A stretch of 39,328 nt of DNA from Burkholderiales bacterium (GCA_036374055.1 DASUUN010000078.1:1-39328); one strand, 5' to 3'; positions 7,688 through 38,774 are shown, numbered from the stretch's first letter. Made by a program: numbers and translations. Notes: generated by a model from the sequence alone, not told the origin.

Positions 7688-8011
7688 ATGGCGTACTACA
7701 TGCACCAAGTCTCGTTTACCGCCGAAGCCTGGGCAAAGATGATCCACGAGCCGCAAAACCGCGAGACGGCGATCCGGCCTACGCTCGAGAAGCTGGGCGG
7801 CCGGCTGGTCGGCTACTGGTTCGCCTTCGGCGATTCCGATGCCGTAGTCATCACGCAGATGCCCGACAACGTCTCGGCCGCGGCCGCCGCGCTCGCTGCG
7901 ACTGCGGGCGGCGCGACGCGCTCGCTCAAGACCACGGTACTGATGTCGGTGGACGAATCGATGGAGGCGATGCGCAAGGCAGGCGGCGCCGGCTATCGCG
8001 CCCCGACCTGA
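7688..8011 (+). CDS. GYD domain-containing protein
   Basis: AAGGAGG RBS 6 nt upstream of the ATG. LGGRLVGYWFAFGDSDAVVITQMPD matches the GYD-family core. Confidence 0.7.
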   Translation: MAYYMHQVSFTAEAWAKMIHEPQNRETAIRPTLEKLGGRLVGYWFAFGDSDAVVITQMPDNVSAAAAALAATAGGATRSLKTTVLMSVDESMEAMRKAGGAGYRAPT

Positions 8012-8031
8012 CCCGATCAGCCGCCGGACGC

Positions 8032-9306
8032 ATGCCCCGCGCCCTGGCCTCCGATGTGCATCTGCGCGAGGTCTGGGCGTGGAGCATGTACGACTTCGCC
8101 AACTCGGGCTACACGACGGTGGTGATCACCGCCGTGTTCAGCGCGTTCTTCGTCTCCACCATCAGCGGCAACCAGGCGTGGGCGACCTTCGCCTGGACCG
8201 CCGCCCTGTCGGTCTCCTATGCGCTCATCCTGGTCACCGGCCCGCTGATCGGCGCCTGGGCCGACGCGCACGCGGCGAAGAAGCGGCTGCTCCTTATGTC
8301 CACCGTGGGCTGCGTGGCTTTCACGGCGTTGCTGTACTTCGTGTCTCCGGGCATGGTCGGGGTGGCGCTGCTGCTGATCATTCTGTCCAACTATTTCTTC
8401 GGCACCGGCGAGAACCTGATCGCGGCGTTCCTGCCGGAGCTCGCCGACTCGCGCGCCATGGGGCGCGTGTCGGGCTGGGGCTGGAGCTTCGGCTACCTCG
8501 GCGGCATCGCCGCGCTCGGCCTGTGCCTTTTCTACATTCTGGGAAGCGGCGAAGAAGCGGTGCGCGCGGTCCCGGTCACCATGCTGATCACCGCGGCGTT
8601 CTTCGCCCTCGCGGCGACGCCCACGTTCCTGTGGCTGAAGGAGCGCGCCGCGCCCCAGGGAAAATTCGCCAACCCGTGGCAGCGAGTGAAGCAGACGCTG
8701 CAGCATTCCAGGGACTTCCGCGACCTGCGGCGCTTCCTGGTGTGCGTGCTGTTCTACCAGGCCGGCATCACCGCGGTGGTGTCGCTCGCCGCGATCTACG
8801 CCGAGCAGGCGATGAAGTTCACCATGCAGCAGACCATCGTGCTGATCCTGGTGGTGAACGTCACGGCGGCGCTGGGCGCCTTCGGCTTCGGCTACCTGCA
8901 GGATGCGATCGGGCACGTGCGGGCGGTCGCGCTCACCCTCGTCGGCTGGATCGCCGTGGTGGTCGTGGCCGGGCTTTCCCAGTCGTCCGCTTCCTTCTGG
9001 GTCGCGGCCAACCTGGCCGGCCTGTGCATGGGCTCGGCGCAGGCGGCGGGGCGCGCGATCGTCGGCTACCTCGCGCCGCCGGCGCGGCTCGCGGAGTTCT
9101 TCGGGCTGTGGGGACTGGCGATGAAGGCCGCGAGCATCTTCGGCCCGCTCACCTACGGCGCGGTCACCTGGGCGTTCGCCGGCAACCATCGCCTGGCGAT
9201 CTTCGCCACCGGCCTGTACTTCGTCCTCGGGCTGCTGTCGTTGCGCGGCGTCGATGTCGAGCGAGGTCGCCGCGCCGCGCTATCGGCGCCGTTGCCGCGA
9301 GTGTAG
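8032..9306 (+). CDS. MFS transporter, UMF1/Atg22-like family
   Basis: WAWSMYDFANSGYTTVV N-terminal signature and about 12 hydrophobic helices. ATG 8032 chosen because the longer ORF (7501) overlaps the GYD gene. Confidence 0.75.
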   Translation: MPRALASDVHLREVWAWSMYDFANSGYTTVVITAVFSAFFVSTISGNQAWATFAWTAALSVSYALILVTGPLIGAWADAHAAKKRLLLMSTVGCVAFTALLYFVSPGMVGVALLLIILSNYFFGTGENLIAAFLPELADSRAMGRVSGWGWSFGYLGGIAALGLCLFYILGSGEEAVRAVPVTMLITAAFFALAATPTFLWLKERAAPQGKFANPWQRVKQTLQHSRDFRDLRRFLVCVLFYQAGITAVVSLAAIYAEQAMKFTMQQTIVLILVVNVTAALGAFGFGYLQDAIGHVRAVALTLVGWIAVVVVAGLSQSSASFWVAANLAGLCMGSAQAAGRAIVGYLAPPARLAEFFGLWGLAMKAASIFGPLTYGAVTWAFAGNHRLAIFATGLYFVLGLLSLRGVDVERGRRAALSAPLPRV

Positions 9307-9332
9307 TCTTTGCGTGCAGGAAGCGGTGCCCC

Positions 9333-9704
9333 ATGGCGCGCCACATCCGCATCATCAACGCCCGCGACTTCGTCTCCGCGAAGCCGGACGGCGCGCTCAA
9401 CCTCGAGGAAAGCGAGCAGCTGCTGCGCGAGGTGGTGAGCGTGTCCGATCCGCTGGAGGAGTTCGACATCCTGGTCGATACGCGCGAGTCCGCCAGCACG
9501 CTGTCGGCGACCGACCTGTGGTACCTCGCCGACCGCCTGGTGAAGTACCCGAGGACCTTCGCCGGCCGCACCGCGATCCTGTGCCCGACCGAGCGCTTCG
9601 ACCACGCCAGCTTCTTCGCCCTGTGCGCCGAGAACAAGGGCGTCGAGATGCAGGCCTTCACCTCCTACGAGGAGGCCATGACCTGGCTCAGCGCTGCGCG
9701 CTGA
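9333..9704 (+). CDS. hypothetical protein (123 aa), possibly STAS/SpoIIAA-like fold
   Basis: ATG at 9333 inside the 8079..9704 ORF, with high GC3. The fold guess rests only on the alternating beta/alpha pattern. Confidence 0.5.
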   Translation: MARHIRIINARDFVSAKPDGALNLEESEQLLREVVSVSDPLEEFDILVDTRESASTLSATDLWYLADRLVKYPRTFAGRTAILCPTERFDHASFFALCAENKGVEMQAFTSYEEAMTWLSAAR

Positions 9705-10011
9705 CCGGGATGCCGTTGCGCTGCAGGGAGAGCCAGCGCAGGCGCGCGCTGCGCTCGTGCACCCGCGCGGCGTCGCGCCGCAGGAACGCCGAGTCGGTCA
9801 TGCCGTAGGCGAGGCGCGCGTCGAGGCCGGCCTGCGCGGCCAGGCGCCGCGCGAGCTCGTAGTCGCGCTGCGCGAGCGCTTCCTCGGCGCGCTGCAGGAC
9901 GTCTTCGGCCAGCCGCAGCTGCGCCGGCGCGAACGCGGCGATGGGGGGCTCGGCCCGGGCCGTCCCGCAGGCAAGCAGAACCATCGCGGCGAGGATCACT
10001 CGGCGGAGCAT
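9688..10011 (-). CDS. small lipoprotein, DUF4398-like helical protein
   Basis: Lipobox LLAC|G in MLRRVILAAMVLLACGT, followed by an Ala/Arg/Glu-rich helical body. The start overlaps the upstream gene's end by 16 nt. Confidence 0.6.
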   Translation of the reverse strand: MLRRVILAAMVLLACGTARAEPPIAAFAPAQLRLAEDVLQRAEEALAQRDYELARRLAAQAGLDARLAYGMTDSAFLRRDAARVHERSARLRWLSLQRNGIPVSAQR

Positions 10012-11063
10012 TTGCGCGGCGCGATGCCGTTTTGCCTGCGGCGATCCTCGGGCAGCGGCGCCACCCAGTCGCTGATCGCGTTCCAGCGGCGGCCGTCCCA
10101 GCGCATGAAGCGCACCCGGCCCGAGCCGGCGCCATCGCTGCATCGGGTCGCGAGCGGCGGCATGAAGCCCGCGGCGCCGAGCGCCTTCAGCCGGCGCGCG
10201 TCGAGGTCGAGGTGCTCCAGCGCCCATTGCACCTGCTTGGCGCTCACCGGCCTGCCGTTGCCGAAGCGCTGCTGCGCCACGCGCACCGCCTCCGCGGTCA
10301 TGATGCCGAACACCACGCCGCGGTTGTAGTAGAGCGAGCCGACGCCCGACGGATCCGCCAGTTCGCCGCCCCCCTTGCCGTAGACGTACTTGCGGATGGC
10401 GGCCATTACCGGGTAGGTGTCGCCCGCGGCGTGAAAGCCCGCGACGACGAAGTCCTTGGCGGCCTGGCCCGCCGGGACGACGTCCTCTTCGGCGCCCGAG
10501 GACCATACGCCCAGCATGCGGCCGCGCGGATAACCGATCTTCGCCGCGCTTGTCAGCGCGGCCGAGCTCATCTCGCCCCAACCCCACACGATCACCCAGT
10601 CGGGGCGCAGCTCGCGGATCTGCAGCCACTGCGGCTGCTGCTCGCTTCCGGGAGGCGGCACCGGGATGGTGCTCAGGCCGTAACCGTACTTTTTCGCCAG
10701 GTCGGCGAGCACCGCGATGGGCTCCTTGCCGTACGCCGAGTCGTGATGCAGCAGCGCGATCTTGCGGTCGCGCAGCTTCTCGAAGCCGCCCTCCTCCTCG
10801 CCCATGTAGCGCACCATGGCAGCGGCCTGGTCCCAGTACGTCGTGATCACCGGATACACGTACGGAAAGGCGCGCGCATCGTCGGCGTTCTTCGGCCAGG
10901 TGAACCTCACCCCATTGATGCCGCCGTCGCGGGCGTTCAGCATGTGCAGGTAATCGCGCATGCCCGCCGACATGGCCGGGACGAGCTGCTCTTTGGGCTG
11001 CGCGTGGGCAGGACCCAGGACGAGCGCCGACGTGCCGAGCAGCAATGCCACGAAGCGTTTCAT
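9996..11063 (-). CDS. ABC transporter substrate-binding protein (LivK/Peripla_BP_6-like), orphan and apparently shortened
   Basis: Signal peptide MKRFVALLLGTSALVLGPAHA. Family blocks LNARDGGINGV, HHDSAYGKEPI and WLQIRELRPDWVIVWGWG. No permease or ATPase genes nearby. Confidence 0.7.
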   Translation of the reverse strand: MKRFVALLLGTSALVLGPAHAQPKEQLVPAMSAGMRDYLHMLNARDGGINGVRFTWPKNADDARAFPYVYPVITTYWDQAAAMVRYMGEEEGGFEKLRDRKIALLHHDSAYGKEPIAVLADLAKKYGYGLSTIPVPPPGSEQQPQWLQIRELRPDWVIVWGWGEMSSAALTSAAKIGYPRGRMLGVWSSGAEEDVVPAGQAAKDFVVAGFHAAGDTYPVMAAIRKYVYGKGGGELADPSGVGSLYYNRGVVFGIMTAEAVRVAQQRFGNGRPVSAKQVQWALEHLDLDARRLKALGAAGFMPPLATRCSDGAGSGRVRFMRWDGRRWNAISDWVAPLPEDRRRQNGIAPRKCSAE

Positions 11064-11089
11064 GCAGATTTTATCCTCCCTCGCGCCGG

Positions 11090-11106
11090 CTTAAGGGAGC
11101 CTTAAC
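11090..11106 (-). promoter_or_regulatory. PmrA/QseB-type direct-repeat box CTTAAG-GGAGC-CTTAAC
   Basis: Two hexamers 11 bp apart. The box overlaps the PRC-barrel gene's stop and lies 26 nt upstream of the substrate-binding protein ATG. TAAAAT lies 16 nt from the proximal half-site. Confidence 0.55.
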
Positions 11107-11608
11107 GGCCCGTGTGCTGCACGCGAGGCTCGAGGCGAAGGTCCACGCGCAAGGTGCGCCTGGCGGCGTCTCGCGCGACGATCGCTGAGGCCGCGATTTC
11201 CAGCTTGCGTCCCGGAAGCAGCCAGTCGCGCGTCGCCGCGACCAGGCCGGCAACCGACCAGTCACCGTTGAGGAGCAGGTCATCGGCATGCCCGATGGGA
11301 CGCCCGCTCGCCTCGATGCGATAGCCCCACAGTGCCCGGCCGCTTACCAGCCGCGCGTGCTTGTCCGCGCTGATGCAGCGCCTGAGCTGCTCGCGTGTCA
11401 GGTCCACCCGCATCCCGGCCGACGGATCCAGCGCTACGCGCGCCGCCGGCACAAGTACCCGCCGCCCCGGAAACCGGTCGCCCTGGTCAATGGCCACGTA
11501 ATGCGGCGCGAGGGTGTCCTGTTCGAATAACACGTCGTTCAGCAGGCCGGCGGGACCGTCCCTTGCCGTGATGCAGCTGCCGCGCAGCGCGTTCAAGCGA
11601 TAAGCCAT
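11102..11608 (-). CDS. PRC-barrel domain protein (2 barrels, no signal peptide)
   Basis: Two PRC-barrel-like units: LRGSCITARDGPAGLLNDVLFEQDTLAPHYVAID and LWGYRIEASGRPIGHADDLLLNGDWSVAGLVA. Confidence 0.7.
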   Translation of the reverse strand: MAYRLNALRGSCITARDGPAGLLNDVLFEQDTLAPHYVAIDQGDRFPGRRVLVPAARVALDPSAGMRVDLTREQLRRCISADKHARLVSGRALWGYRIEASGRPIGHADDLLLNGDWSVAGLVAATRDWLLPGRKLEIAASAIVARDAARRTLRVDLRLEPRVQHTGR

Positions 11609-11630
11609 CGCCGCAACCTAGGCCGGCCGG

Positions 11631-11647
11631 CTTAAGGAGGGCTTAAG
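11631..11647. promoter_or_regulatory. PmrA/QseB-type box CTTAAG-GAGGG-CTTAAG in the divergent region between the PRC-barrel gene and the response regulator
   Basis: Perfect palindromic half-sites 11 bp apart. On the minus strand the order is box, 10 nt, TAGGTT, 6 nt, ATG 11608. The box lies 43 nt upstream of the regulator ATG. Confidence 0.7.
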
Positions 11648-11690
11648 CGGCGCAGCCTTGGCCGCGTACGCAACTTGCAAAGGTGGTGGC

Positions 11691-12350
11691 ATGCGCCTTT
11701 TGTTGGTGGAAGACGACCGCATGATCGGCGAAAACATCCGCGACGGGCTGGTGCAGGAAGGCCACGCGGTTGATTGGGTGCGTGACGGCTTGGAGGCCGA
11801 AGCAGCGATCCGCGGCGAGCGCTACGGTGCGGTGCTGCTCGACCTGGGGCTGCCGCGGCGCGACGGCATCGAGGTACTGCGCCGGCTGCGCGCGCTCGAC
11901 AACCCGGTCCCGGTGCTCGTCATTACGGCGCGCGACGCCGTGGCCGACCGCGTGCGCGGGCTGGATGCGGGCGCCGACGACTACCTGGTTAAGCCTTTCG
12001 ACCTGGACGAGCTGGCCGCCCGGGTGCGGGCCCTGACCCGGCGCGCCGCCGGACGCACGGCGGGGATCGTGCGGCACGGTGCGATTACGCTGGACCCGGC
12101 GAGGCGCGAAGTGCGCGTGAGCGGCAGGCCCGTAGCGCTGTCCGCGCGCGAGTATGCGGTGCTCGAAGCGCTCATCGAGCGGCCGGGGAGCGTGCTGTCG
12201 CGGGCGCAGCTCGAGGAGCGGCTCTACGGCTGGGGCGAAGAAGTGGCGAGCAATGCGGTCGAAGTCCACGTGCACAACCTTCGGCGCAAGCTGGGCGCCG
12301 ATCTCATCCGCAACGAGCGCGGCGTCGGCTATTCCATGCCGGTGACCTAG
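11691..12350 (+). CDS. OmpR/PhoB-family response regulator (PmrA/QseB/TctD-like)
   Basis: Receiver RLLLVEDD...LLDLGLP...DDYLVKPF and winged-helix LSAREYAVLEAL...VEVHVHNLRRKL...RGVGY. ATG 11691 lies behind AAGGTGG. Confidence 0.9.
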   Translation: MRLLLVEDDRMIGENIRDGLVQEGHAVDWVRDGLEAEAAIRGERYGAVLLDLGLPRRDGIEVLRRLRALDNPVPVLVITARDAVADRVRGLDAGADDYLVKPFDLDELAARVRALTRRAAGRTAGIVRHGAITLDPARREVRVSGRPVALSAREYAVLEALIERPGSVLSRAQLEERLYGWGEEVASNAVEVHVHNLRRKLGADLIRNERGVGYSMPVT

Positions 12351-13669
12351 TGTCGCTGCGGCGCCGCCTGCTGCTCGCGCTGCTCGGCGCGGTGCTCGCG
12401 TGCGGACTGCTGGCGAGCGCGGCCACCTACTACGCCGCGCGCTCCGAGGTGCAGGCGCTGCTGGACGAGGAGCTTCGCCAGGTGGCGCTGTCGCTGCGGG
12501 ATCACGCGCTGCTGGATCTGCGACCGCTCGGTTCGCCGGCGGGCGAGCACGGTCGCCGCGTCGTGGTGCAGATCTGGGACCGGCACGGATTCGCGAGCTA
12601 CCTCTCGAATGCCACCACGCCGCTGCCCTTGACCCTTACGCCCGGCTTCTCGACCCTGCCCCACGAGGGACGCGAGTGGCGCATGTTCACTCTGCGCGCG
12701 GGCGCGCAGGTGATCCAGGCGGCGCAGCCGACGGCCGAGCGCACCCAGCGCGCAGCAGCCGCCGCGCTGCGCGTGCTCGTTCCGGTGCTCGGCGCGCTGC
12801 CCTTGCTCACGGTGCTGGTGTGGCTGATCCTGGACCGCGGCTTCGCGCCGCTTTCGCGCCTGGCCAGCGCCGTCGGCGCGCGCAGCGCCCCGGCGCTCGA
12901 GCCGCTGCCCGCCGAGCGGGTGCCCGAGGAAGTGGCTCCGCTCGTCGGCGCGCTGAACAACCTTCTCGCGCGCCTGCGCGAGGCGTTCGACGTGCAGCGC
13001 CGCTTCGCCGCCGACGCGGCGCACGAGCTGCGCACGCCGCTCACCGCGCTCAAGCTGCAGATCCAGCTCCTCGAGCGGGCCCGGGGCGGCGACGAGCGCG
13101 CCACCGCCATTGCCGGCCTGAAGGAGCGAGCGCAGCGCGCGGAGCGCATCGTGCAGCAGCTCCTGGCCATGGCGCGGCTCGAGCCGGAAGCCGTCGAGCA
13201 CGCGCCGCAGCGCGTGGCCCTGGATGAAGTTGCGCGTGCGGTGGTCCGGGAGCTGTCGCCTCTGGCGACGCAGAAAGGCGTCCGGCTGCACCTCGCGCGC
13301 GCCCAGCCCGCCGGTGTACGGGGCGCGGAGGAAGCGCTGCGCCTTCTCGCCACGAACCTGGTCGACAACGCCATCCGCTACACACCGGCGGGCGGTGAAG
13401 TGCAGGTAAGCACGACGGGCGCGGAAGGTCTGGCGATTCTTCAGGTGAGCGACGACGGCCCGGGGATTCCCGCTGCCGAGCGCGAGCGGGTGTTCGATCG
13501 CTTCTATCGCGGCGCGGCGGCGCCGGAAGGCGGCAGCGGGCTCGGTCTGGCGATCGTGCGCCGGGTGGCCCAGCTCCATGGCGCTCGCGTGGAGCTGGCC
13601 GAGGGCCTGCAGGGCCGTGGGCTGACGACGCGCTTGGTTGCGCCGGCCGCAGACCAAGCGACGCCTTAA
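12350..13669 (+). CDS. sensor histidine kinase (QseC/PmrB-like, 2CSK_N-type periplasmic loop)
   Basis: GTG start overlaps the regulator stop (TAGTG). Two TM helices, H-box FAADAAHELRTPLT, N box NLVDNAIRYTP, G boxes DDGPGIP and GSGLGLAIV. Confidence 0.9.
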   Translation: MSLRRRLLLALLGAVLACGLLASAATYYAARSEVQALLDEELRQVALSLRDHALLDLRPLGSPAGEHGRRVVVQIWDRHGFASYLSNATTPLPLTLTPGFSTLPHEGREWRMFTLRAGAQVIQAAQPTAERTQRAAAAALRVLVPVLGALPLLTVLVWLILDRGFAPLSRLASAVGARSAPALEPLPAERVPEEVAPLVGALNNLLARLREAFDVQRRFAADAAHELRTPLTALKLQIQLLERARGGDERATAIAGLKERAQRAERIVQQLLAMARLEPEAVEHAPQRVALDEVARAVVRELSPLATQKGVRLHLARAQPAGVRGAEEALRLLATNLVDNAIRYTPAGGEVQVSTTGAEGLAILQVSDDGPGIPAAERERVFDRFYRGAAAPEGGSGLGLAIVRRVAQLHGARVELAEGLQGRGLTTRLVAPAADQATP

Positions 13670-13681
13670 GCGCCAGCTAAG
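13665..13681 (+). promoter_or_regulatory. imperfect PmrA/QseB-type box CTTAAG-CGCCA-GCTAAG upstream of DegQ-1
   Basis: Overlaps the kinase stop codon. It is followed by 10 nt, then CAAGCT (-10-like), then a 34-nt leader with an AGGAGA RBS before ATG 13732. Confidence 0.5.
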
Positions 13682-13731
13682 CGTCGCGGGTCAAGCTGGC
13701 GCCCCGGCTCATAACGAACCCAGGAGACAGC

Positions 13732-15150
13732 ATGAACTCAGCAGCAACCTTCAAGCGCCCGCTGATCGCGCTCGCCGTTGCCTCGGTACTGGCAGCGGGC
13801 TGCAGCGAAGTGACGCTTCCCGGCGTGCGCAATGCCAATGCGGTGGCCGTACAGCCCTTCGCCGCACAAGCAGCGGCGAGCGCCCTTCCAGACTTCGCCT
13901 CGCTGGTCGAGCAGCACGGGCCGGCGGTAGTGAAGATCGAGGTGAGCAAGGTGCAGCGCGCCTCGCTGCCCGAGCAGGCGCCGCCCCAGCTCGACGAATT
14001 CTTCCGGCACTTCGGCGTTCCGCGGCCCGAGGGCCGCCTCATGCCGAACCCCGCGCCCGCGCAGGGCGTGGGCTCGGGCTTCGTCGTCAGCCCGGACGGC
14101 ACGATCCTCACCAATGCGCACGTGGTCGACGGCGCCGGCGAAGTGACCGTGAAGCTGTCGGACAAGCGCGAATTCACGGCCAAGGTGGTCGGCGTGGATC
14201 GCATGACCGACGTCGCGGTCGTCAAGGTCGAAGCATCCGGCCTTCCGACCGTGAAGATCGGCGACCCGGCGAAGACGCGGGTCGGCGAATGGGTGGCGGC
14301 GATCGGCTCGCCGTTCGGCATGGACCACTCCGTCACCTCGGGCATCGTGTCGGCCAAGTCGCGCAACCTGCCGAACGAGCGCCTCGTGCCGTTCCTCCAG
14401 ACCGACGTCGCGGTGAACCCGGGCAACTCCGGCGGGCCGCTCTTCAACATGGCGGGCGAAGTGATCGGCATCAACTCGCAGATCTACAGCACCACGGGCG
14501 GCTACATGGGGATGTCGTTCGCCATCCCGATCGACGTGGCGATGAAGGTCAAGGAGCAGCTCGTGGCGCACGGCAAGGTGACGCGCGGGCGCATCGGCGT
14601 GACCGTCCAGCAAGTGACCCCGGCGCTCGCGCAGTCGTTCGGCCTGGACAAGCCGCGCGGCGCGCTCGTTTCGGGCATCGAGCCCGGCGGTCCGGCCGCT
14701 GACGGCGGCCTGCAGGCGGGCGACGTGGTCGTGGCCTTCAACGGCAAGCCGATCGCGAGCTCCGGCGAGCTGCCGGCGCTGGTGGCGGAGACCAAGCCCG
14801 GCGAGACCGTAAAGGTGGGCGTCGTGCGCAAGGGCGCCGAGCGGCAGATGCAGCTCACCGTAGGCGAAATGCCTTCGGAGCGCACCAGCGTCGCGGGCGC
14901 GCCGGCCCTGCAGCAGGGCAAGCTCGGCGTGTCCGTGCGGCCCGGCGACAAGGGGCTGGAGATCGAGCAGGCCGAGGGGCCGGCGGCCAAGGCCGGCCTG
15001 CGCGCCGGCGACATCATCGTCGGTGTCAACGGCACCCCGGTGCGCTCCATCGACGAGCTGCGAAACGCGGTAGAGGGCGCGGGCGGCAACCTGGCCATCC
15101 TCGTGCAGCGCGGCAACGCGCGCCTTTACGTTCCGGTGCAGATCGGCTAG
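13732..15150 (+). CDS. DegQ/MucD-family periplasmic serine endoprotease (HtrA), 2 PDZ domains
   Basis: Signal peptide. Catalytic motifs TNAHVV, DVAVVKV, GNSGGPL. Two PDZ segments (GALVSGIEPGGPAADGGLQAGDVV and GLRAGDIIVGVNG). Confidence 0.9.
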   Translation: MNSAATFKRPLIALAVASVLAAGCSEVTLPGVRNANAVAVQPFAAQAAASALPDFASLVEQHGPAVVKIEVSKVQRASLPEQAPPQLDEFFRHFGVPRPEGRLMPNPAPAQGVGSGFVVSPDGTILTNAHVVDGAGEVTVKLSDKREFTAKVVGVDRMTDVAVVKVEASGLPTVKIGDPAKTRVGEWVAAIGSPFGMDHSVTSGIVSAKSRNLPNERLVPFLQTDVAVNPGNSGGPLFNMAGEVIGINSQIYSTTGGYMGMSFAIPIDVAMKVKEQLVAHGKVTRGRIGVTVQQVTPALAQSFGLDKPRGALVSGIEPGGPAADGGLQAGDVVVAFNGKPIASSGELPALVAETKPGETVKVGVVRKGAERQMQLTVGEMPSERTSVAGAPALQQGKLGVSVRPGDKGLEIEQAEGPAAKAGLRAGDIIVGVNGTPVRSIDELRNAVEGAGGNLAILVQRGNARLYVPVQIG

Positions 15151-15229: not shown

Positions 15230-15871
15230 TTACTTGCGGTACTTGCTGTACTCGGACCGGCTCAAGCTGCCGTCGTTATCGGTATCAAGCCGCTGGAACG
15301 TCGATCCCGAGGAGGCGCTGCCGCCCGAGGAGGCGCTGCTGCCGCCCTGGCCGGACTGCGCTGTGGGCGAGCCGCCCGTGCACGCCACCTTGACCGAGCT
15401 GATGTCCTCGAAGAAGCCCAGCTTTTCGTCTAGGTCCGCCACCTTCTGCCCGGGCTTGAAGGTCGCCGCCCTTTGCTCGTAGTTCTCATTGTCGTACACG
15501 GTCAGCCTGGCCTTCGGCCCGACGGCGATGCTGTCGAATTCACCGCTCCAATCCGTGCCGAATGCGGTGCGCATGTTCGGCATGTCGACCGGACCGACCA
15601 GCGACAGCTGGTTGCCCTCGAAGTTGGTGCTGTCGTACAAGCGCGCCCAGCAGCCATTGCTGAAACTGTCCCGGCTCGCCACCTGAACCGGCACCAGCAC
15701 GATGAGCGGAGCGTTGGCGGCCGCGGTTGCGCCGCTCGAGCCGCTTTGCTTCTTGCTGCTCTGGCTGGGGCCGGAGGACTGCGGCTTATCCTGTTGGTTC
15801 TGCGCCATGGCGCCGGTTGCGGCGAAGGCCGCGGCTACACCTACTGCGAGAAGCTTCATCGAATGCATCAT
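15230..15871 (-). CDS. secreted beta/gamma-crystallin-like domain protein with C-terminal EF-hand
   Basis: Signal peptide MKLLAVGVAAAFAATGAMA. Greek-key motifs YDSTNFEG and YDNENYEQ. EF-hand loop DTDNDGSLSRSE. AGGAGG RBS. Confidence 0.7.
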   Translation of the reverse strand: MMHSMKLLAVGVAAAFAATGAMAQNQQDKPQSSGPSQSSKKQSGSSGATAAANAPLIVLVPVQVASRDSFSNGCWARLYDSTNFEGNQLSLVGPVDMPNMRTAFGTDWSGEFDSIAVGPKARLTVYDNENYEQRAATFKPGQKVADLDEKLGFFEDISSVKVACTGGSPTAQSGQGGSSASSGGSASSGSTFQRLDTDNDGSLSRSEYSKYRK

Positions 15872-16003: not shown

Positions 16004-16486
16004 TCAACGCTTCTGGCTGGTGCGCAGGTCCGGCGGCAGCTGCACCATCGCCTGCTGGGTGTCGAACAGCGCCTGGTTCGCCTGCTGCATGGCTTCGTTG
16101 CGCCGCGGTCCGGCAGGCTGCTTCGCCATCGCCTGCACTGCATCGCGCAGGCGCTGCGCCGCCTCCTGCAGTCGCTCCATCGACTTCGTGTAATTGGGCT
16201 CGGTGCCCGCCCCCATGCGCAGCTCCGGCGGCAGGTCGATCATGGCGCGCTGCGTCTCCACGATGGCTTCGCGGGCTTCGTCTGCTGCGGCATTGCGCCG
16301 CTCACCGGCGGGCTGCTGCGCCATCGCCTGCACCGCCTCACGCAGCTTCTGCGCCGCCTGCTGCAGGCGTACCATCGACTCGCCGTAGTTGGTGGGCGCA
16401 GTTGCGCCGCTGCTTTGCGCGGATGCCGCTCCTGCGCCGCCCAGGAAAGCAGCCGCCACCACGCTAACCAAGAATTTGCGATCCAT
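16004..16486 (-). CDS. periplasmic all-helical protein with two ~58-aa tandem repeats (unknown family)
   Basis: GAGGAGG RBS and signal peptide MDRKFLVSVVAAAFLGGAGAASA. The repeats are NYGESMVRLQQAAQKLREAVQAMAQQPAG...LPPELR and NYTKSMERLQEAAQRLRDAVQAMAKQPAG...LPPDLR. Confidence 0.7.
   Translation of the reverse strand: MDRKFLVSVVAAAFLGGAGAASAQSSGATAPTNYGESMVRLQQAAQKLREAVQAMAQQPAGERRNAAADEAREAIVETQRAMIDLPPELRMGAGTEPNYTKSMERLQEAAQRLRDAVQAMAKQPAGPRRNEAMQQANQALFDTQQAMVQLPPDLRTSQKR
16025..16390 (-). repeat. in-frame tandem duplication (2 x ~174 nt, period 192 nt) inside gene 16004..16486
   Basis: Repeat units at about 16217-16390 and 16025-16198 encode clearly related peptide units. Confidence 0.7.
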
Positions 16487-16516
16487 AGGACCTCCTCGTG
16501 TAAATGGCGCCTGCCG

Positions 16517-16532
16517 TGCAAAGGCCGTTCCG
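16517..16532 (-). promoter_or_regulatory. sigma-54-type promoter CGGAACGGCCTTTGCA for gene 16486(-)
   Basis: GG-N10-GC spacing with a perfect TTGCA -12 element. The predicted TSS is near 16506, giving a 20-nt leader with GAGGAGG. Confidence 0.55.
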
Positions 16533-16547
16533 GGCACGGCCGTTGCA
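16532..16547 (+). promoter_or_regulatory. sigma-54-type promoter GGGCACGGCCGTTGCA for the PRC-barrel operon
   Basis: Matches GGCACG-N4-TTGCA. Its -24 element shares G16532 with the divergent promoter. GTG 16559 lies exactly 13 nt after the -12 C. Confidence 0.65.
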
Positions 16548-16558
16548 CCGGGGACGGC

Positions 16559-17773
16559 GTGCAGCCCGTGAACAACTTTCTCTTTGCATCTTTTCGCGCC
16601 GGCGCGCTTATCGGGACGCTGCTGCTGGCGTGCGGCGCGCAGGCGGCGCCGGTAAGCGCAGGCGCGCTGCTGGGTGCCCGCGTGGCCGACGCTGAAGGCG
16701 CGCAGCTCGGGACGATTCACGACCTTGCAGTGGACGTCGCTGCCGGTTACGTGCGCTATGCGATCGTCGAAAAAGCCGAGACCAGCCGTAACCAGCGCGA
16801 AGTGCGCGCCGCACCGATCACCGCGCTGCGGCCCGGGCTTGCGCGCGGCCAGCTGGTGCTGGAGTCGCGCACTCAGGTTCCGCCGGGCAATGCCGGCGGC
16901 TACCTCATGCGGGCCAAAGCGATCCTCGGCAGGCCGATCGATCATCCGACCGGCGCCGATTACGGAACCATCCGCGACGTCTTCTTCGAGCTGGAAAGCG
17001 GGCGCGTGCTGCACGCCGAGGTTTCCCTGGAGGCGGCAGCGAACGGCGTAAAGCGCAAGGTGCCATTCGATGCGCTGCGTTTTCCGCCGGCCCAGCCCAA
17101 CGCCATCCTGACGCTCGGGTCCGCCACCCTGCCGGCAAGCCAGCTGATCGGCATGGAGGTGCGCAACCGGGATGCCGGCACCAAAGGCCGCATCGACGAG
17201 CTGGTGGTGGACTTGCATAACAGCCGCGTGCACTACGTCGTGCTCGACATGGAGCACCGGTTGATCACCGAGCCCCTCGAGCGACTATCGTTTACGCCGG
17301 GCAGGCAATACGCCGTATTGCCGAACGCGACCCGCGGCATCGCAGAGCCGCGCGCCGGAATGACGCTGGCACGCGCGAGCGAGCTGATCGGCTGGGAGTT
17401 CGAGAACGAGCCCGGCGTCGACTTGGGCGTCATCAGCGATCTTTCCATCGACCCGCAAACCGGCAGGGTTTCGCACGCGCTCGTGCGGCTGCACGAGGCG
17501 CCGGGCCGTATGCAGCGGCTCGAGCTCAGCCGATTTTCGATGTCGCCGTGGCGCGAGAACCTGGTGCTCGCCGAGCCCTCCGCCGCCGCCGGCGCCACCA
17601 CACCCGCCGGCGGCGTCAATCTCTTCGAGCGGCTCGATCGCGACGGCAATGGTTTTATCGAGGATTCCGAGCTCGATAGCGGTATCGTCGGCCGCAGAAA
17701 CTGGATCGCCGTCGACCTCGATCGCGATGACCGGATCAGTCGGGACGAGTTCACCGCCATGCGCACGCAATGA
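16559..17773 (+). CDS. secreted protein with four PRC-barrel domains and a C-terminal EF-hand pair
   Basis: Signal peptide FRAGALIGTLLLACGAQA. Four units of type LLGARVADAEGAQLGTIHDLAVDVAAGYVRYAIV. EF loops DRDGNGFIEDSE and DLDRDDRISRDE. GTG 16559 chosen, with GTG 16568 as the alternative. Confidence 0.75.
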   Translation: MQPVNNFLFASFRAGALIGTLLLACGAQAAPVSAGALLGARVADAEGAQLGTIHDLAVDVAAGYVRYAIVEKAETSRNQREVRAAPITALRPGLARGQLVLESRTQVPPGNAGGYLMRAKAILGRPIDHPTGADYGTIRDVFFELESGRVLHAEVSLEAAANGVKRKVPFDALRFPPAQPNAILTLGSATLPASQLIGMEVRNRDAGTKGRIDELVVDLHNSRVHYVVLDMEHRLITEPLERLSFTPGRQYAVLPNATRGIAEPRAGMTLARASELIGWEFENEPGVDLGVISDLSIDPQTGRVSHALVRLHEAPGRMQRLELSRFSMSPWRENLVLAEPSAAAGATTPAGGVNLFERLDRDGNGFIEDSELDSGIVGRRNWIAVDLDRDDRISRDEFTAMRTQ

Positions 17774-18321
17774 AGCTGATCCTCGTGCTCCTGGCGGGTG
17801 CCCTGCTCGCTCCCGCCGCGCCCTTGCACGCCGACAACAAGGCGCAGGTACGCGCAACGGAGCTTTTCGGCAGCCGGCTCATAGACAAGGGTGGCGAGGC
17901 GCTCGGCGAAATCGGCGACCTGGTGTTCGACGCGCGCAACGGGGCGCTGCGCTCGGTGGTGGTCGACGGCGTTGCTTTGCCGGTGAGCCGGCTGCTGCCC
18001 GAGGCGGGCGGCCGGCGCTACATCCTGACGGAGCCCGACGACACCCGCCCGACCGCCTTTGCCGAGCCCCGCTGGCCTTCGATGCGCGCAAGCCGCCTGG
18101 TCAGCCATGAGGTAGTCGACCGCCTGCACCGCGATTTCGGCGAGATTCGGGACGTCCTGGTGGATCTCGACCGACGCCGGGTGGGCGGAGTGATCATCGA
18201 TCGCAGAGACGACTGGCAGGCCGGACAGGCGCTGGTCACCGTCCCTGTCGAGGCGCTGTCGCTGCCGCGCGATCTGGGCGACAAGGTGGCGCTCAACTAC
18301 TCCCGCGAGCGCCTCGAATAG
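17770..18321 (+). CDS. secreted PRC-barrel protein (2 barrels)
   Basis: ATGA start/stop overlap with the upstream gene. Signal peptide MKLILVLLAGALLAPAAPLHA. Barrel units LFGSRLIDKGGEALGEIGDLVFDARNGALRSVVV and LVSHEVVDRLHRDFGEIRDVLVDLDRRRVGGVII. Confidence 0.75.
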   Translation: MKLILVLLAGALLAPAAPLHADNKAQVRATELFGSRLIDKGGEALGEIGDLVFDARNGALRSVVVDGVALPVSRLLPEAGGRRYILTEPDDTRPTAFAEPRWPSMRASRLVSHEVVDRLHRDFGEIRDVLVDLDRRRVGGVIIDRRDDWQAGQALVTVPVEALSLPRDLGDKVALNYSRERLE

Positions 18322-18322
18322 C

Positions 18323-18338
18323 GGGCCCGCCGATTGCA
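18323..18338 (+). promoter_or_regulatory. sigma-54-like element GGGCCCGCCGATTGCA upstream of DegQ-2 (internal promoter candidate)
   Basis: GG-N10-GC spacing with a perfect TTGCA -12 element; the -24 lacks the A of GGCAC. The predicted TSS is near 18349, 26 nt before ATG 18375. Confidence 0.4.
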
Positions 18339-18374
18339 TCGAGCTTCTCCGTCCCGATCCCCAAAGGCCCCGCC

Positions 18375-19811
18375 ATGAAAGTCCTCGCCTTCGTTCTAGC
18401 GGCCGTGCTGGCCGCGCCCGCCGCCGCCCAGGCTCAATCCCCGTCACAGGGCGCCACCGCGCCAACCCGGGAGGCCAACCTTCCGGATTTCACCGCGCTC
18501 GTGAAAAAGCAGGGACCGGCGGTCGTCAACGTAATCACTACACGCGCCGCTGCCCAAGGCGGGCCGGCGGGGCTGTCGCCCGATGATCCGTTCTACGAGT
18601 TCTTCCGCCGGTTCATGCCCGAAATGCCGGAAGGCGGGCCGCCGGGGCAGGGCGAAGGGCCGGGCGGCCAGGGCATCGGCTCGGGGTTCATCATCAGCCC
18701 GGACGGCTACATCCTCACCAACGCGCACGTCGTGGCCGGTTCGAAGGAAGTGACGGTGCGCATGGCCGACGCCAAGCGCGAGTTCAAGGCGCAAGTGGTG
18801 GGCACGGACGAGCGCACCGACGTGGCGCTGCTCAAGGTGGATCAGGACAACCTGCCGGTGGTGAAGCTCGGCAAGTCCAGCACGCTGGAGCCTGGCCAAT
18901 GGGTCGCGGCCATCGGCTCGCCGTTCGGATTCGCTAACACCATCACGGCCGGCATCGTCAGCGCCACCGAGCGCGCGCTGCCCGCGGAGACCTACCTGCC
19001 GTTCATCCAGACCGACGTGGCCGTGAATCCCGGCAACTCCGGAGGGCCGCTGCTCAACCTCGACGGCGAAGTGGTCGGCATCAACTCCATGATCTACAGC
19101 CGCACCGGCGGCTACATGGGCGTGTCCTTCGCCATCCCCATCGAAGAGGCGCTCGATGTCTCCAAGCAGCTGCGCGAGCACGGCAAGGTGACGCGCGGCC
19201 GCCTGGGCATCGGCATCCAGCCGGTCACCAAGGAGCTGGCGCAGTCCTTCAAGCTGGATTCCGCCAATGGCGTGGTGGTGGTGCAGGTCGAGCCGGGCAG
19301 CCCGGCGGAAAAGGCCGGCCTGCAAGTCGGCGACGTGATTCTCAGCTACAACGGCAAGACGATCGAAGAAGGCAACATGCTGCCGCGCCTGGTGGGCAAC
19401 ACCAAGCCCGGCCAGCAGGCGAAGCTCGAGATCTGGCGCAAAGGCGAACGCCAGACCGTGACCACGACGGTCGGCGAGCTCCAGCCACGGGCGGAACAAG
19501 CGGCGGCCGGCAAGGCACCCTCGGACGACAAGCCCAGCAAGCTCGGCCTTTCCGTGCGCGAGCTCGCGCCGGACGAGCGCAAGAAGCTCGGGGTCGAGTT
19601 CGGCGTGGTCGTCACCGACATCGCCCAGGGCGCCGCCGCGGCGCGCACGCCGATCCGGCGCGGCGACGTCATCGTGGCGGTCAACCAGGCGCGCTTCAAG
19701 AGCATCGAGGAGTTCAACAAGCTGATCGAGGCGCAGAAGAAAGGCGAGACCGTGGCGCTGCTCGTGCGTCGTGGCGAGGGTGCCATCTATGTCCCCATGG
19801 AAGTGGGGTAG
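18375..19811 (+). CDS. DegQ/MucD-family periplasmic serine endoprotease (HtrA), second copy
   Basis: Signal peptide MKVLAFVLAAVLAAPAAAQA. Catalytic motifs TNAHVV, DVALLKV and GNSGGPL. Two PDZ segments. By eye roughly 60% identical to the 13732 copy across the protease core. Confidence 0.9.
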   Translation: MKVLAFVLAAVLAAPAAAQAQSPSQGATAPTREANLPDFTALVKKQGPAVVNVITTRAAAQGGPAGLSPDDPFYEFFRRFMPEMPEGGPPGQGEGPGGQGIGSGFIISPDGYILTNAHVVAGSKEVTVRMADAKREFKAQVVGTDERTDVALLKVDQDNLPVVKLGKSSTLEPGQWVAAIGSPFGFANTITAGIVSATERALPAETYLPFIQTDVAVNPGNSGGPLLNLDGEVVGINSMIYSRTGGYMGVSFAIPIEEALDVSKQLREHGKVTRGRLGIGIQPVTKELAQSFKLDSANGVVVVQVEPGSPAEKAGLQVGDVILSYNGKTIEEGNMLPRLVGNTKPGQQAKLEIWRKGERQTVTTTVGELQPRAEQAAAGKAPSDDKPSKLGLSVRELAPDERKKLGVEFGVVVTDIAQGAAAARTPIRRGDVIVAVNQARFKSIEEFNKLIEAQKKGETVALLVRRGEGAIYVPMEVG

Positions 19812-20415
19812 CGTGCTGGCGGCGCTCCTCGCGCCGCCCATCGCGCTCGCCGCCGGGTGGATCCGGATGCCGGCGAGCGAGCTGCTCGGCAAGCCGGTGA
19901 TCGACATGCAAGGCGACCGGCTCGGCCGGGTACAGGACCTCGTGGTTGACGTGCGCAATTCGCGGGTGAGCTACGCGATCGTAGGCTTCAACGGCTGGGG
20001 GACGTTGGGCGAAGAGCTGTTCCCCGTCCCGCTGAAATCGCTGGCGCCCGAGCCGGGCGGCTCGCGCGTGACGCTGCAGGTGGCTCCACGCACGCTGCGC
20101 GATGGCGCCTCGATCGACGCGCAAAGCGAGCCGCGGCTGCCGGCCGATGCGCCCCTCAAGCAACACGTACGCGCGAGCGAGCTCGTTGGCCGCCGCGTCA
20201 GCGACCGCACCGGCACGCATGCCGGCGAGATCGAGGAGGCGGTGATCGACATGAACAGCGGGCTCGTGCTTTTCCTCCTGTTCGACTACGACGAGGCCTG
20301 GGGGCTCGATCAGCCGGCGCTGCGCATGGCGCCGCAGGCCTTCAGCTTCCCGGCCGATGGCGGCCCTGCCGTCGTCAACGTGGCGCGCGAGCGCCTTGAA
20401 GACCCCGGTCGCTAG
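19789..20415 (+). CDS. secreted PRC-barrel protein (2 barrels)
   Basis: ATG 19789 overlaps the DegQ-2 3' end by 23 nt. Signal-like MSPWKWGSVLAALLAPPIALAAG. Barrel units LLGKPVIDMQGDRLGRVQDLVVDVRNSRVSYAIV and LVGRRVSDRTGTHAGEIEEAVIDMNSGLVLFLLF. Confidence 0.7.
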   Translation: MSPWKWGSVLAALLAPPIALAAGWIRMPASELLGKPVIDMQGDRLGRVQDLVVDVRNSRVSYAIVGFNGWGTLGEELFPVPLKSLAPEPGGSRVTLQVAPRTLRDGASIDAQSEPRLPADAPLKQHVRASELVGRRVSDRTGTHAGEIEEAVIDMNSGLVLFLLFDYDEAWGLDQPALRMAPQAFSFPADGGPAVVNVARERLEDPGR

Positions 20416-22803: not shown

Positions 22804-23216
22804 AGGCGGCTCGCGATCACCGCGCGAAAGCGCTCGGCCGCGGCCTCCCAGCCGTAACGTGCGTGCCATTCGGGCAGATCGATGAGGTCGAGCTGCGTCA
22901 GTTCCCTGCACGCCCGGTGCACGGCCGCCATCGCCGCCGGATTCAGGCAGCTCGGCAGGAACCGGCAGCAGTGGAATGGAAGGTCGCGGGTCGCGGGGTT
23001 GCTCTTCACCTTGTCGAGCAGCACCGGCATCAGCGAGTCGTCGAAGTGCAGCCCGGCCACGATCGCATGGATGCCGCCTTGCGCGAGGCGCACGAGCGCT
23101 TCCTCGATGGTGAAGACGTAGTGAAGCTCGGCGAACCCGTCCAGGCACCGGGCGACGATGTGGCTGGACTTCCGGCTGGCCGCCACAAGGATGCAGGGCT
23201 TTGCTGAGTGGCCCAC
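22794..23216 (-). CDS. CheY-like pseudo-receiver protein (phospho-acceptor position not Asp)
   Basis: The receiver-like pattern CILVAAS...IHAIVAGLHFDDSLMPVLLDKVK has Gly where the acceptor Asp is expected. GTG 23216 is preferred. The longer form, starting at ATG 23291, would contain both divergent promoters and sit 14 nt from the neighbour's ATG. Confidence 0.5.
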   Translation of the reverse strand: MGHSAKPCILVAASRKSSHIVARCLDGFAELHYVFTIEEALVRLAQGGIHAIVAGLHFDDSLMPVLLDKVKSNPATRDLPFHCCRFLPSCLNPAAMAAVHRACRELTQLDLIDLPEWHARYGWEAAAERFRAVIASRLPP

Positions 23217-23226
23217 CACCAGGCGT

Positions 23227-23242
23227 TGCACGCGTTGTGCCC
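23227..23242 (-). promoter_or_regulatory. sigma-54-type promoter GGGCACAACGCGTGCA for the pseudo-receiver gene
   Basis: GGCAC -24 and GTGCA -12 elements. GTG 23216 lies 12 nt after the -12 C. Confidence 0.5.
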
Positions 23243-23256
23243 GGGCGGACGGCGCA

Positions 23257-23272
23257 TGGCACGCGCTTTGCG
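23257..23272 (+). promoter_or_regulatory. sigma-54 promoter TGGCACGCGCTTTGCG for the EF-hand/PG-binding gene
   Basis: Full consensus TGGCAC-N5-TTGC. The predicted TSS is near 23283, giving a 23-nt leader with AAGGAGG 6 nt before ATG 23306. Confidence 0.75.
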
Positions 23273-23305
23273 AGTTCTTCCGCAAATCCATCAAGGAGGT
23301 CTTAT

Positions 23306-23893
23306 ATGAATATGCGCCTTACCGTATCCATTCTGCCTGCAGCAGTCGCGCTCGCCCTGGCCGGTCCGCTTCACGCCGCCGACGTGCCGAACTTCAATCA
23401 GATGGACAAGAACAACGACGGCCAGCTTACGAAAAGCGAGGCTCAGGCAAACCCGAAGCTTGCCGACCAGTTCAGCCAGGTCGACGACGACAACAACGGC
23501 ACGTTAAGCCGCCCCGAGTATCTCGCCATCATGGGGCGCCAGGACCTGCACAACCTGCGCGAAAATCTCGCCGAGTTCCTCGATCCCGAGGGCAAGCCGC
23601 CGCTTGCCGCCAGCGGCGAGCAGGGCAAGCAGGAGCCGACGAAAGCCGTAAGCGAGCAGCTGGTGCGCAACGTGCAGCAGACGCTTTCCGACAAGGGCAT
23701 CGACGCCGGCCCGGTGGACGGCATCTGGGGTGCGCGCACCAGCTCCGGCGTGCGCCAGTTCCAGAAGGCCCAGGGCATGCAGCCCACCGGCCAGCTCAAC
23801 GCGAAGACGCTTAGCGCGCTTGGCATCGCCGAGGGCTCGGCCTCAGCTGGACAAAGCGGCGCGCCCGCTGAAGAAAGCGGCAAGCAGCGCTGA
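23306..23893 (+). CDS. secreted EF-hand pair protein fused to a peptidoglycan-binding (PG_binding_1-like) domain
   Basis: Signal peptide MNMRLTVSILPAAVALALAGPLHA. EF loops DKNNDGQLTKSE and DDDNNGTLSRPE. The C-terminal VQQTLSDKGIDAGPVDGIWGARTSSGVRQFQKAQGMQPTGQLNAKT is a typical PG-binding repeat. Confidence 0.8.
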   Translation: MNMRLTVSILPAAVALALAGPLHAADVPNFNQMDKNNDGQLTKSEAQANPKLADQFSQVDDDNNGTLSRPEYLAIMGRQDLHNLRENLAEFLDPEGKPPLAASGEQGKQEPTKAVSEQLVRNVQQTLSDKGIDAGPVDGIWGARTSSGVRQFQKAQGMQPTGQLNAKTLSALGIAEGSASAGQSGAPAEESGKQR

Positions 23894-30789: not shown

Positions 30790-30800
30790 GTGATTCCTGT

Positions 30801-30816
30801 CGCACGAATCGTGCCG
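30801..30816 (-). promoter_or_regulatory. sigma-54-type promoter CGGCACGATTCGTGCG for the PRC-barrel/crystallin operon
   Basis: GGCACG -24 and GTGCG -12 elements. ATG 30789 lies exactly 13 nt after the -12 C. Confidence 0.6.
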
Positions 30817-30831: not shown

Positions 30832-30842
30832 GGTCGTAGACG

Positions 30843-36873: not shown

Positions 36874-36890
36874 CTTAAGGACGACTTAAC
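36874..36890 (-). promoter_or_regulatory. PmrA/QseB-type box CTTAAG-GACGA-CTTAAC in a divergent intergenic region
   Basis: On the minus strand the order is box, 11 nt, CAGACT, then a 25-nt leader with GGGAGAG before ATG 36831. Confidence 0.6.
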
Positions 36891-38409: not shown

Positions 38410-38426
38410 ATTAAGCCGGCCTTAAG
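38410..38426 (-). promoter_or_regulatory. PmrA/QseB-type box (minus strand CTTAAG-GCCGG-CTTAAT) upstream of the hydrolase gene
   Basis: On the minus strand the order is box, 9 nt, TACAGT, 8 nt, ATG 38386. Confidence 0.65.
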
Positions 38427-38728: not shown

Positions 38729-38745
38729 ATTAAGCCGGGCTTATG
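38729..38745 (-). promoter_or_regulatory. PmrA/QseB-type box (minus strand CATAAG-CCCGG-CTTAAT) upstream of the 58-aa ORF
   Basis: On the minus strand the order is box, 10 nt, CACAAT, 6 nt, ATG 38706. This is the same 10/6/6 geometry as at 11608. Confidence 0.6.
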
Positions 38746-38757: not shown

Positions 38758-38774
38758 CTTAAGGGAGCCTTAAG
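38758..38774 (+). promoter_or_regulatory. PmrA/QseB-type box CTTAAG-GGAGC-CTTAAG upstream of the K+-channel-like gene
   Basis: Perfect half-sites with the same GGAGC spacer as box 11090. It lies 12 nt from box 38729 and 33 nt upstream of ATG 38808. Confidence 0.6.

Follow-up and report, generated by a model that had tools for sequence, protein, structure and literature searches.

The response regulator PmrA (BasR) of Salmonella, Klebsiella and E. coli, a member of the OmpR/PhoB family, recognizes a box that has been written as CTTAAG-N5-xTTAAT in Salmonella (PMC3973317) and, in the more general form XTTAAY-N5-XTTAAY, overlaps the -35 element (PMC10570014). Since the PhoB site of pstS covers -41..-25 and lies 4 bp upstream of the pmra-box (PMC10570014), we derived a position of about -37..-21 for the pmra-box of pbgP. 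The QseB site of A. actinomycetemcomitans is given in a review as CTTAA-N6-CTTAA flanking the -35 element, and the review limits true QseBC to Enterobacteriaceae and Pasteurellaceae (PMC5053249). Here we describe a 39,328-nt stretch of DNA from a Burkholderiales bacterium (GCA_036374055.1, DASUUN010000078.1:1-39328; the whole stretch is hereafter called the window), which encodes a two-component system of this type, namely a response regulator (11691..12350, plus strand) and a sensor histidine kinase (12350..13669, plus strand), and which carries seven paired TTAAG boxes. Judging from sequence and comparative evidence, these seven boxes are very likely the DNA-binding sites of the regulator encoded at 11691-12350.

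In a study of Burkholderia cenocepacia (Flannagan et al., 2007, as summarized in PMC5295037), a module of comparable composition, BCAL2831-BCAL2830 with the HtrA protease BCAL2829, was required to withstand osmotic and heat stress and to survive in vivo. In that module, as in the window (11691-15150), an HtrA-type protease adjoins a response regulator and a kinase. A literature search that did not cover the original 2007 paper found no published operator for this Burkholderia regulator-kinase-HtrA cluster. In three Burkholderia loci of our own comparison (L017, L022 and L023), the genes followed the order regulator-kinase-DegQ and two tandem boxes preceded the protease gene; their kinases were, however, only about 45% identical to that of the window, and these loci are likened to BCAL2831-2829 by gene order only.

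The regulator and its kinase

The regulator (219 aa, receiver Asp51) matched the Pfam domains Response_reg (97.5 bits) and Trans_reg_C (77.1 bits), showing the combination of a receiver with a C-terminal winged-helix domain that defines the OmpR/PhoB family, and its D51 aligned with the corresponding Asp of PmrA. A look-up of the exact regulator protein returned no record. The best-scoring NCBIfam models were QseB (243.4 bits) followed by PmrA (NF007928, 234.6 bits), and the closest solved structure was that of Klebsiella PmrA (PDB 4s04 and 8jo2), with an ungapped alignment to 4s04. A preliminary description of the window, made from the sequence alone, had placed the regulator in the PmrA/QseB subgroup, and these results bore that placement out; the PmrA and QseB recognition sequences that it had given were also correct (PMC3973317; PMC5053249).

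Despite this affinity, both regulator scores were below the equivalog cut-offs (345 bits for QseB and 330 bits for PmrA). The QseC/PmrB-like kinase (439 aa, with Pfam HisKA and HATPase_c) likewise had QseC as its top model, at 234.5 bits against a cut-off of 475 (QseBC equivalogs NF007663 / NF007664), and no ygiW-like gene was seen beside the pair among the window open reading frames (ORFs) and in Pfam scans. From these sequence comparisons, the regulator-kinase pair is judged to be orthologous to neither PmrA nor QseB.

In the PmrA-DNA crystal structure 4S05, T187, N188, V192 and H195 touch TAA bases (PMC10570014), and H193, R171, R198 and R210 have also been implicated in DNA contact (PMC3973317). 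The window regulator carries S187, N188, V192, H193, H195, R171, R198 and R210 at these positions, with Ser in place of T187, and a PmrA-like half-site is therefore expected. The boxes of the window in fact share the form xTTAAy-N5-xTTAAy with the PmrA box, as well as its overlap with, or replacement of, the -35 element, and the QseB site represents the same repeat; the head-to-tail binding of PmrA is predicted here from the sequence. Unlike in the PmrA box, the second half-site is usually TTAAG and not TTAAT or CTAAG, and the genes behind the boxes, in the window and on related contigs, include none for the modification of lipid A (arn/pbgP, eptA/pmrC, ugd).

Paired TTAAG boxes in the window

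The window has a G+C content of 69%. The hexamer CTTAAG occurred eight times exactly (11090, 11631, 11642, 13665, 36874, 38421, 38758 and 38769), a count reached by none of 100 dinucleotide-preserving shuffles (mean 1.53, maximum 5), and each copy had a partner hexamer 11 bp away. The statement of the preliminary description that CTTAAG occurs eight times, in excess of chance and always within an 11-bp-spaced pair, was thus confirmed. The paired pattern itself gave 12 matches against 2.7 expected, again reached by 0 of 100 shuffles.

These pairs resolved into seven boxes, six clear and one degenerate, all of which were intergenic, i.e., between ORFs: box A at 11090 (CTTAAGGGAGCCTTAAC), box B at 11631 (CTTAAGGAGGGCTTAAG), box C at 13665 (CTTAAGCGCCAGCTAAG), box D at 36874 (CTTAAGGACGACTTAAC), box E at 38410 (ATTAAGCCGGCCTTAAG), the degenerate box F at 38729 (ATTAAGCCGGGCTTATG) and box G at 38758 (CTTAAGGGAGCCTTAAG). 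The set of three boxes originally proposed (A, B and C) was right in its coordinates and sequences; it left unlisted, however, the four boxes at 36.8-38.8 kb (36874, 38410, 38729 and 38758), whose hexamers its count had included and which lie 23-25 kb away from the regulator gene. When the window was scored with a weight matrix built from foreign sites only, in 19-column and 33-column versions, exactly these seven boxes and no others exceeded 12 bits, the mean maximum in random sequence being 8.6 bits; the top scores of the core matrix belonged to boxes A and G.

A repeat search of the window found no longer repeat family covering the boxes, and an origin from a mobile repeat or repetitive extragenic palindromic (REP) element was rejected on this ground. 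When the box regions were scanned for promoters and terminators, neither a terminator nor a self-sufficient sigma70 promoter was detected there.

The box in related loci

We compared 160 regulator-kinase loci, of which 80 (L001-L080; Betaproteobacteria-like, kinases 37-54% identical) came from a kinase search with one genome per species and 80 (L082-L161; kinase relatives of no more than 54% identity) from an independent metagenome set. In the 934 kb of the genome loci, CTTAAG-N5-CTTAAG with up to two mismatches gave 73 hits, 54 of which fell into three narrow classes relative to the kinase start, namely +1200..+1500, just past the kinase stop, -900..-700, just ahead of the regulator gene, and about -2400. 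The sites of the +1200..+1500 and -2400 classes sat directly before a DegQ-like gene. Such a gene adjoined the pair in 48 genome loci and 57 metagenome loci (out of 80 each), either downstream or, in Massilia-type loci, upstream, and the box kept its place in front of the gene either way. The pattern was replicated in the metagenome set, where 42 of 63 hits lay just past the kinase gene and 43 of 56 DegQ-like genes had a box, and an annotated Ralstonia megaplasmid showed the same layout ahead of a gene labelled 'peptidase'.

A seedless k-mer count over the 300 nt preceding each of 47 DegQ-like genes returned TTAAG as the 5-mer with the highest enrichment (79 occurrences vs 2.8 expected). In these regions, 48 TAAG-TAAG pairs had a distance of 11 nt, and smaller peaks appeared at 21-22 and 32-33 nt. 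The half-sites of the relatives were asymmetric (TTTAAG 29 vs CTTAAA 1; CTAAG 22 vs CTTAG 1), and being directional they form direct repeats that point at the gene. In 33 aligned foreign sites, a -10-like hexamer yAcnCT was found exactly 10 nt past the box (A29 in 23 and T33 in 26 of the 33), which would place the box at about -39 to -23. The features of tandem repeats bound by the OmpR/PhoB family, i.e., the 11-nt spacing, directional halves and a -10 element at 10-11 nt, were thus present at the sequence level.

A tblastn search for the remaining window targets in the 160 loci identified via the kinase gave no matches, indicating that these targets are clade-specific. These loci informed on conservation at the level of the family but did not lend themselves to footprinting of boxes A, B and D-G. 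Closer relatives were reached via homologues of two window proteins, a PRC-barrel-like protein and a secreted hydrolase, both described below. One contig (L162) was syntenic with window 8000-15150 and contained exactly three strong sites, the equivalents of boxes A, B and C. Hydrolase homologues (80-87% identical) lay on seven further contigs (L163-L169), with DegQ paralogues, a pair of genes for a substrate-binding protein and a DUF4398-like lipoprotein, and a PDZ protein as neighbours, together with a regulator-kinase-DegQ unit in L163. The latter contig also had additional boxes ahead of NfeD/Band7 genes and of the PDZ protein gene. Altogether, six of the seven window boxes were kept before the same genes in the closer relatives (L162, L163, L167 and L168), the conserved targets being the genes for the PRC-barrel-like protein, the binding protein, DegQ, a YdjM-like protein, the hydrolase and a 58-aa protein. 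The statistics of the motif, the conservation of the box in position and across genomes, and the conservation of the DNA-contact residues are what the sequence data show.

Box C and degQ-1

Box C (13665..13681, plus strand) is the predicted activating site of degQ-1, the gene of a DegQ/HtrA-type periplasmic serine protease (13732..15150, plus strand; 472 aa). The protein scored 473 bits with TIGR02037 (degP_htrA_DO), above the subfamily cut-off, and so belongs to the Do family (DegP/DegQ/HtrA). The box scored 14.7 bits with the 19-column and 18.5 bits with the 33-column matrix, and its first half-site contains the TAA stop codon of the kinase gene (13667-13669), an overlap that was also observed in L162, L002, L006, L036, L038, L050, L057 and L074. 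At 10 nt 3' of the box lies the -10-like hexamer CAAGCT (13692..13697, plus strand), which occupies positions 28-33 of the family alignment; L071 and L080 have an identical hexamer at this distance from the box. The position of box C was matched by 32 of the 73 hits in the genome loci and by those 42 of 63 in the metagenome loci, and the box was kept in L162 and L163.

Control of DegQ-1, which had been proposed from the position of this box, was strongly supported by the occurrence of the box before DegQ-like genes adjoining the regulator-kinase pair in more than 70 other loci. Within the predicted regulon, a DegQ/HtrA protease is the core target conserved across Betaproteobacteria. The window also encodes a second DegQ-type paralogue (18375-19811, plus strand), which shares with degQ-1 a 300-nt stretch of 76% identity, forms part of a PRC-barrel operon and is not preceded by a box.

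Boxes A and B

Box B (11631..11647, read on the minus strand as CTTAAGCCCTCCTTAAG) lies in the 82-bp region between the regulator gene and a divergent gene for a PRC-barrel-like cytoplasmic protein of 168 aa, P168 (11102..11608, minus strand). It scored 24.3 bits with the 19-column matrix and, at 25.2 bits, was the best site of the window with the 33-column version. The -10-like hexamer TAGGTT (11615..11620, minus strand) follows 10 nt past the box and 6 nt ahead of the ATG (11608). In L162 the half-sites, the hexamer (TAGGyT, here TAGGCT) and the 6-nt gap to ATG were kept, while the spacers had diverged. The Pfam PRC match of P168 was weak (E = 0.008), and only 16 homologues were found, mostly carriers of PF05239.

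Box A (11090..11106, read on the minus strand as GTTAAGGCTCCCTTAAG; 25.3 bits) is located directly upstream of the gene for a substrate-binding protein (9996-11063, minus strand) with a Pfam Peripla_BP_6 match and a signal peptide, which is overlapped by the gene for a small DUF4398-like lipoprotein (about 9689-9998, minus strand), as read from the sequence. The TAA stop codon of the P168 gene (11102-11104) falls inside half-site 1 of this box. Together with its spacer and 3' flank, box A was kept in L162 (GTTAAGGCTGCCTTAAGCCGGC) and L163 (CATAAGGCTGCCTTAAGCCGGCGC), and the binding-protein/DUF4398 gene pair came after the boxes in L162, L163 and L168. The conservation of boxes A and B in L162 and L163 thus supported the earlier proposal that the regulator controls the PRC-barrel, binding-protein and DUF4398 genes; the binding protein, however, had been described as cytoplasmic, and it is expected to be periplasmic because of its signal peptide.

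Between box B and the regulator start, a 37-nt stretch (GCGTACGCAACTTGCAAAGGTGGTGGCATG... at 11664-11700, plus strand) was identical at 36 of 37 positions in L162 (5040-5077) and largely kept in L163, while the neighbouring intergenic DNA had diverged. It holds two small palindromes, GCGTACGC and CTTGCAAG, and its distance to box B varies (19 nt vs 23 nt). This stretch may comprise the regulator gene's own promoter and 5' untranslated region, or a site for another factor.

The distal boxes

Box D (36874..36890, minus strand; 21.1 bits) reads GTTAAGTCGTCCTTAAG and is followed, after 11 nt, by CAGACT (36857-36862), upstream of the gene for a YdjM-like membrane protein (36238-36831). The same arrangement was found in L168 (TTTAAGTCGTCCTTAAG, 11 nt, CAGACT), ahead of the gene for a 61%-identical YdjM-like protein, and in L167 (TTTAAGTTTTGCTTAAG, 11 nt, CAGACT). 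Box E (38410..38426, minus strand; CTTAAGGCCGGCTTAAT) precedes the gene for a secreted alpha/beta hydrolase (37478-38386), with 11 nt to CAGTAT (38393-38398) and a further 6 nt to the ATG (38386); its scores for the plus and minus strands were 20.6 and 14.8 bits, respectively. This layout recurred before the hydrolase genes of L163, L167 and L168, whose products are 80-85% identical, as box, 11 nt, CAkkAT, 6 nt and a start codon, which is GTG in L163.

The weak box F (38729..38745, minus strand; scores of 12.1 and 8.1 bits for the plus and minus strands, respectively) reads CATAAGCCCGGCTTAAT and is followed by 10 nt, CACAAT (38713-38718), 6 nt and the ATG (38706) of a gene for a 58-aa protein (38530-38706, minus strand). 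This ORF had no family match. In L163, GCTAAGGCGCGCTTAAC, 10 nt, GACAAT, 7 nt and ATG stand ahead of an ORF for a 74%-identical 60-aa protein, located in the same position by the hydrolase gene, and the sequence comparison identifies the 58-aa ORF as a real conserved gene.

Box G (38758..38774) had the top 19-column score of the window (27.4 bits) and lies 29 nt upstream of box F. It forms a perfect 7-3-7 inverted repeat (CTTAAGG-gag-CCTTAAG), and owing to its palindromic halves no strand was assigned to it. On its other side it faces a divergent short Ion_trans_2 ORF (38808-39134). In L163 a second box occurred 19 nt upstream of the F-like box, an offset that differs from that of box G by one helical turn. 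Candidate targets of box G are the 58-aa gene, the channel-like ORF or both.

At three of the promoters, those of the PRC-barrel-like, hydrolase and 58-aa genes (11606-11620, 38384-38398 and 38704-38718, all minus strand), exactly 6 nt separate the -10-like hexamer from the ATG, and no Shine-Dalgarno sequence is present. This geometry, which was kept in L162, L163, L167 and L168, predicts leaderless mRNAs, with transcription beginning at about 11608, 38386 and 38706, respectively; for degQ-1 the predicted start is about 13704 on the plus strand.

Other features of the window

PRC-barrel proteins are unusually concentrated in the window (16415-20415, 27937-29103, 30184-31041, 35491-36225 and 15230-15871); several have EF-hand motifs. 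A protein with beta/gamma-crystallin and EF-hand domains is encoded as well, as is a PG_binding and EF-hand protein at 23201-23893, and genes of this kind also neighbour the regulon genes in L167.

A minus-strand ORF at 9164-9661 was considered as a gene because of its high G+C at third codon positions, but its translation, rich in Arg and Ser, appears to be a misreading. The true gene probably lies on the plus strand (about 9310-9704), encodes about 130 aa and is convergent with the DUF4398-like gene. At 1096-1166, two convergent ORFs are separated by an inverted repeat of 34 nt that is close to perfect (88% complementarity, loop of 3 nt) and whose arms (AATTCGGGGTCAGTGTCGTAATTC...) appear by eye relatively AT-rich for the window. 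It could be a bidirectional terminator or the remnant of a repeat element.

Discussion

The assignment of the boxes to the window regulator has to be weighed against several observations that tell against it. The core columns of the weight matrix were fixed by the choice of sites (at most one mismatch to TTAAG-N6-TTAAG), and the frequency of the box in the source genome was assessed within the 39,328-nt window only. Boxes A and G have no -10 element at the canonical 10-11 nt, TAAAAT lying 16 nt from box A, and several of the predicted -10 hexamers are weak. As the window hexamers are mostly palindromic CTTAAG, boxes E and G were oriented by means of their gene context and of the relatives. Toward the regulator gene, the nearest -10-like hexamer is TACGCA, whose distance from the box (19 nt at box B, 23 nt in L162) is non-canonical. 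Autoregulation, which had been deduced earlier from the position of the box at 11631, is thus not shown by the geometry of the window, since this box has a canonical -10 element, and is placed canonically, only toward the divergent PRC-barrel-like gene; a box was canonically placed ahead of the regulator gene in 14 of the 80 more distant genome loci. Autoregulation is the weakest point of our interpretation.

Real operators could also be read by a different protein, either a paralogous PmrA/QseB/TctD-type regulator whose gene lies beyond the window, or a symmetric dimer on the palindromic CTTAAG halves. The palindromic nature of most window hexamers and the inverted repeat of box G would suit the latter, the recognition residues shared within the subgroup make cross-binding plausible, as also suggested for PmrA at the qseBC promoter (PMC5053249), and four of the boxes are far from the regulator gene. 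Nevertheless, the box travels with the regulator-kinase pair in well over 100 independent loci, moving along with the DegQ-like gene, and the asymmetric, direct half-sites of the relatives are at odds with a symmetric binder. No other DNA-binding regulator was seen among the window ORFs scanned. We therefore regard a different binder as unlikely. That the pairs have no regulatory function at all, being chance AT-rich intergenic words, remnants of mobile repeats or related to AflII sites, can draw on the gathering of AT-rich words in the intergenic DNA of a genome with 69% G+C and on CTTAAG being a palindromic restriction site. Such an origin is effectively refuted by the comparative data and hence extremely improbable, given the strict 11-nt spacing, the non-palindromic TTTAAG and CTAAG variants and the conservation before orthologous genes in several genera, in addition to the shuffling results and the absence of a longer repeat family noted above.

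The regulator might instead bind these boxes mainly as a repressor or roadblock, and not as a class II-type activator, for instance by occluding its own promoter at box B or blocking read-through at boxes A and C. The overlap of boxes A and C with the stop codons of the preceding genes, the absence of a terminator-like site between the genes flanking these two boxes in the terminator scan, the lack of a canonically spaced -10 element at boxes A and G, and the coverage by box B of a would-be -35 element for the TACGCA hexamer are all compatible with such a role. On the other hand, a -10-like hexamer 10-11 nt downstream without a -35 element was found in the 33 foreign sites and at boxes B, C, D, E and F, a layout that corresponds to the activator-dependent promoters of PmrA and PhoB (PMC10570014), and the promoter scan gave no self-sufficient sigma70 promoter in the box regions. 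Predominant repression consequently appears quite unlikely.

We thus favor activation by the window regulator and propose the following mechanism. The kinase would phosphorylate Asp51, upon which the regulator would dimerize, and its two winged-helix domains would occupy a pair of yTTAAG half-sites, spaced by 11 bp, in head-to-tail arrangement. The box, which at most targets covers about -39 to -23, would replace the -35 element there, and a weak -10 element (yAnnnT) would follow 10-11 nt downstream. The bound dimer would recruit sigma70 RNA polymerase in the manner of PmrA and PhoB. The predicted regulon would comprise DegQ/HtrA and, within the clade, also the PRC-barrel-like protein, the periplasmic binding protein with the DUF4398 lipoprotein, the YdjM-like protein, the hydrolase and the 58-aa protein. 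In this scheme, we infer from the sequence that the window regulator is the protein that binds, that it activates its targets and does not repress them, and that the transcripts in question are leaderless; the signal that induces the system is likewise inferred.

CpxRA of E. coli is an OmpR-family pair that activates a DegP-family protease and other envelope proteins via tandem direct repeats near the -35 element, the CpxR box being GTAAA-N5-GTAAA. The likeness of the window system to CpxRA-degP is one of functional analogy only. The window regulator belongs to a different subfamily (114 bits with the CpxR model vs a cut-off of 341), and the window motif differs from the CpxR box. With this reservation, the conservation of DegQ/HtrA as a target and the fact that most of the other products are located in the envelope suggest, by analogy with CpxR driving degP, a response concerned with envelope and periplasmic protein quality control. 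We tentatively put forward, as a possibility that we hold somewhat short of probable, that the pair is the sensor-regulator of an uncharacterised envelope quality-control response widespread in Betaproteobacteria, a functional counterpart of Cpx built on a PmrA/QseB-type regulator, whose operator and core regulon (the HtrA/DegQ protease and clade-specific envelope proteins) would be readable from sequence. Two unusual design features would belong to it, namely a first half-site that at the same time provides the upstream gene with its stop codon, and box-dependent promoters whose transcripts begin exactly with the start codon, resulting in leaderless mRNAs for the PRC-barrel-like, hydrolase and 58-aa proteins.

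The operator proposed here can be read from the sequence as yTTAAG-N6-TTAAG followed by a -10 element after 10-11 nt. It would imply that a regulon with no relation to lipid A modification makes use of a PmrA-type DNA specificity without any change to it, which is behavior to be expected of the OmpR family. The box also provides a testable regulon for an uncharacterised two-component system linked to HtrA/DegQ in Burkholderia, Ralstonia, Massilia, Cupriavidus and many uncultured Betaproteobacteria, and its definition would allow regulon prediction in pathogens.

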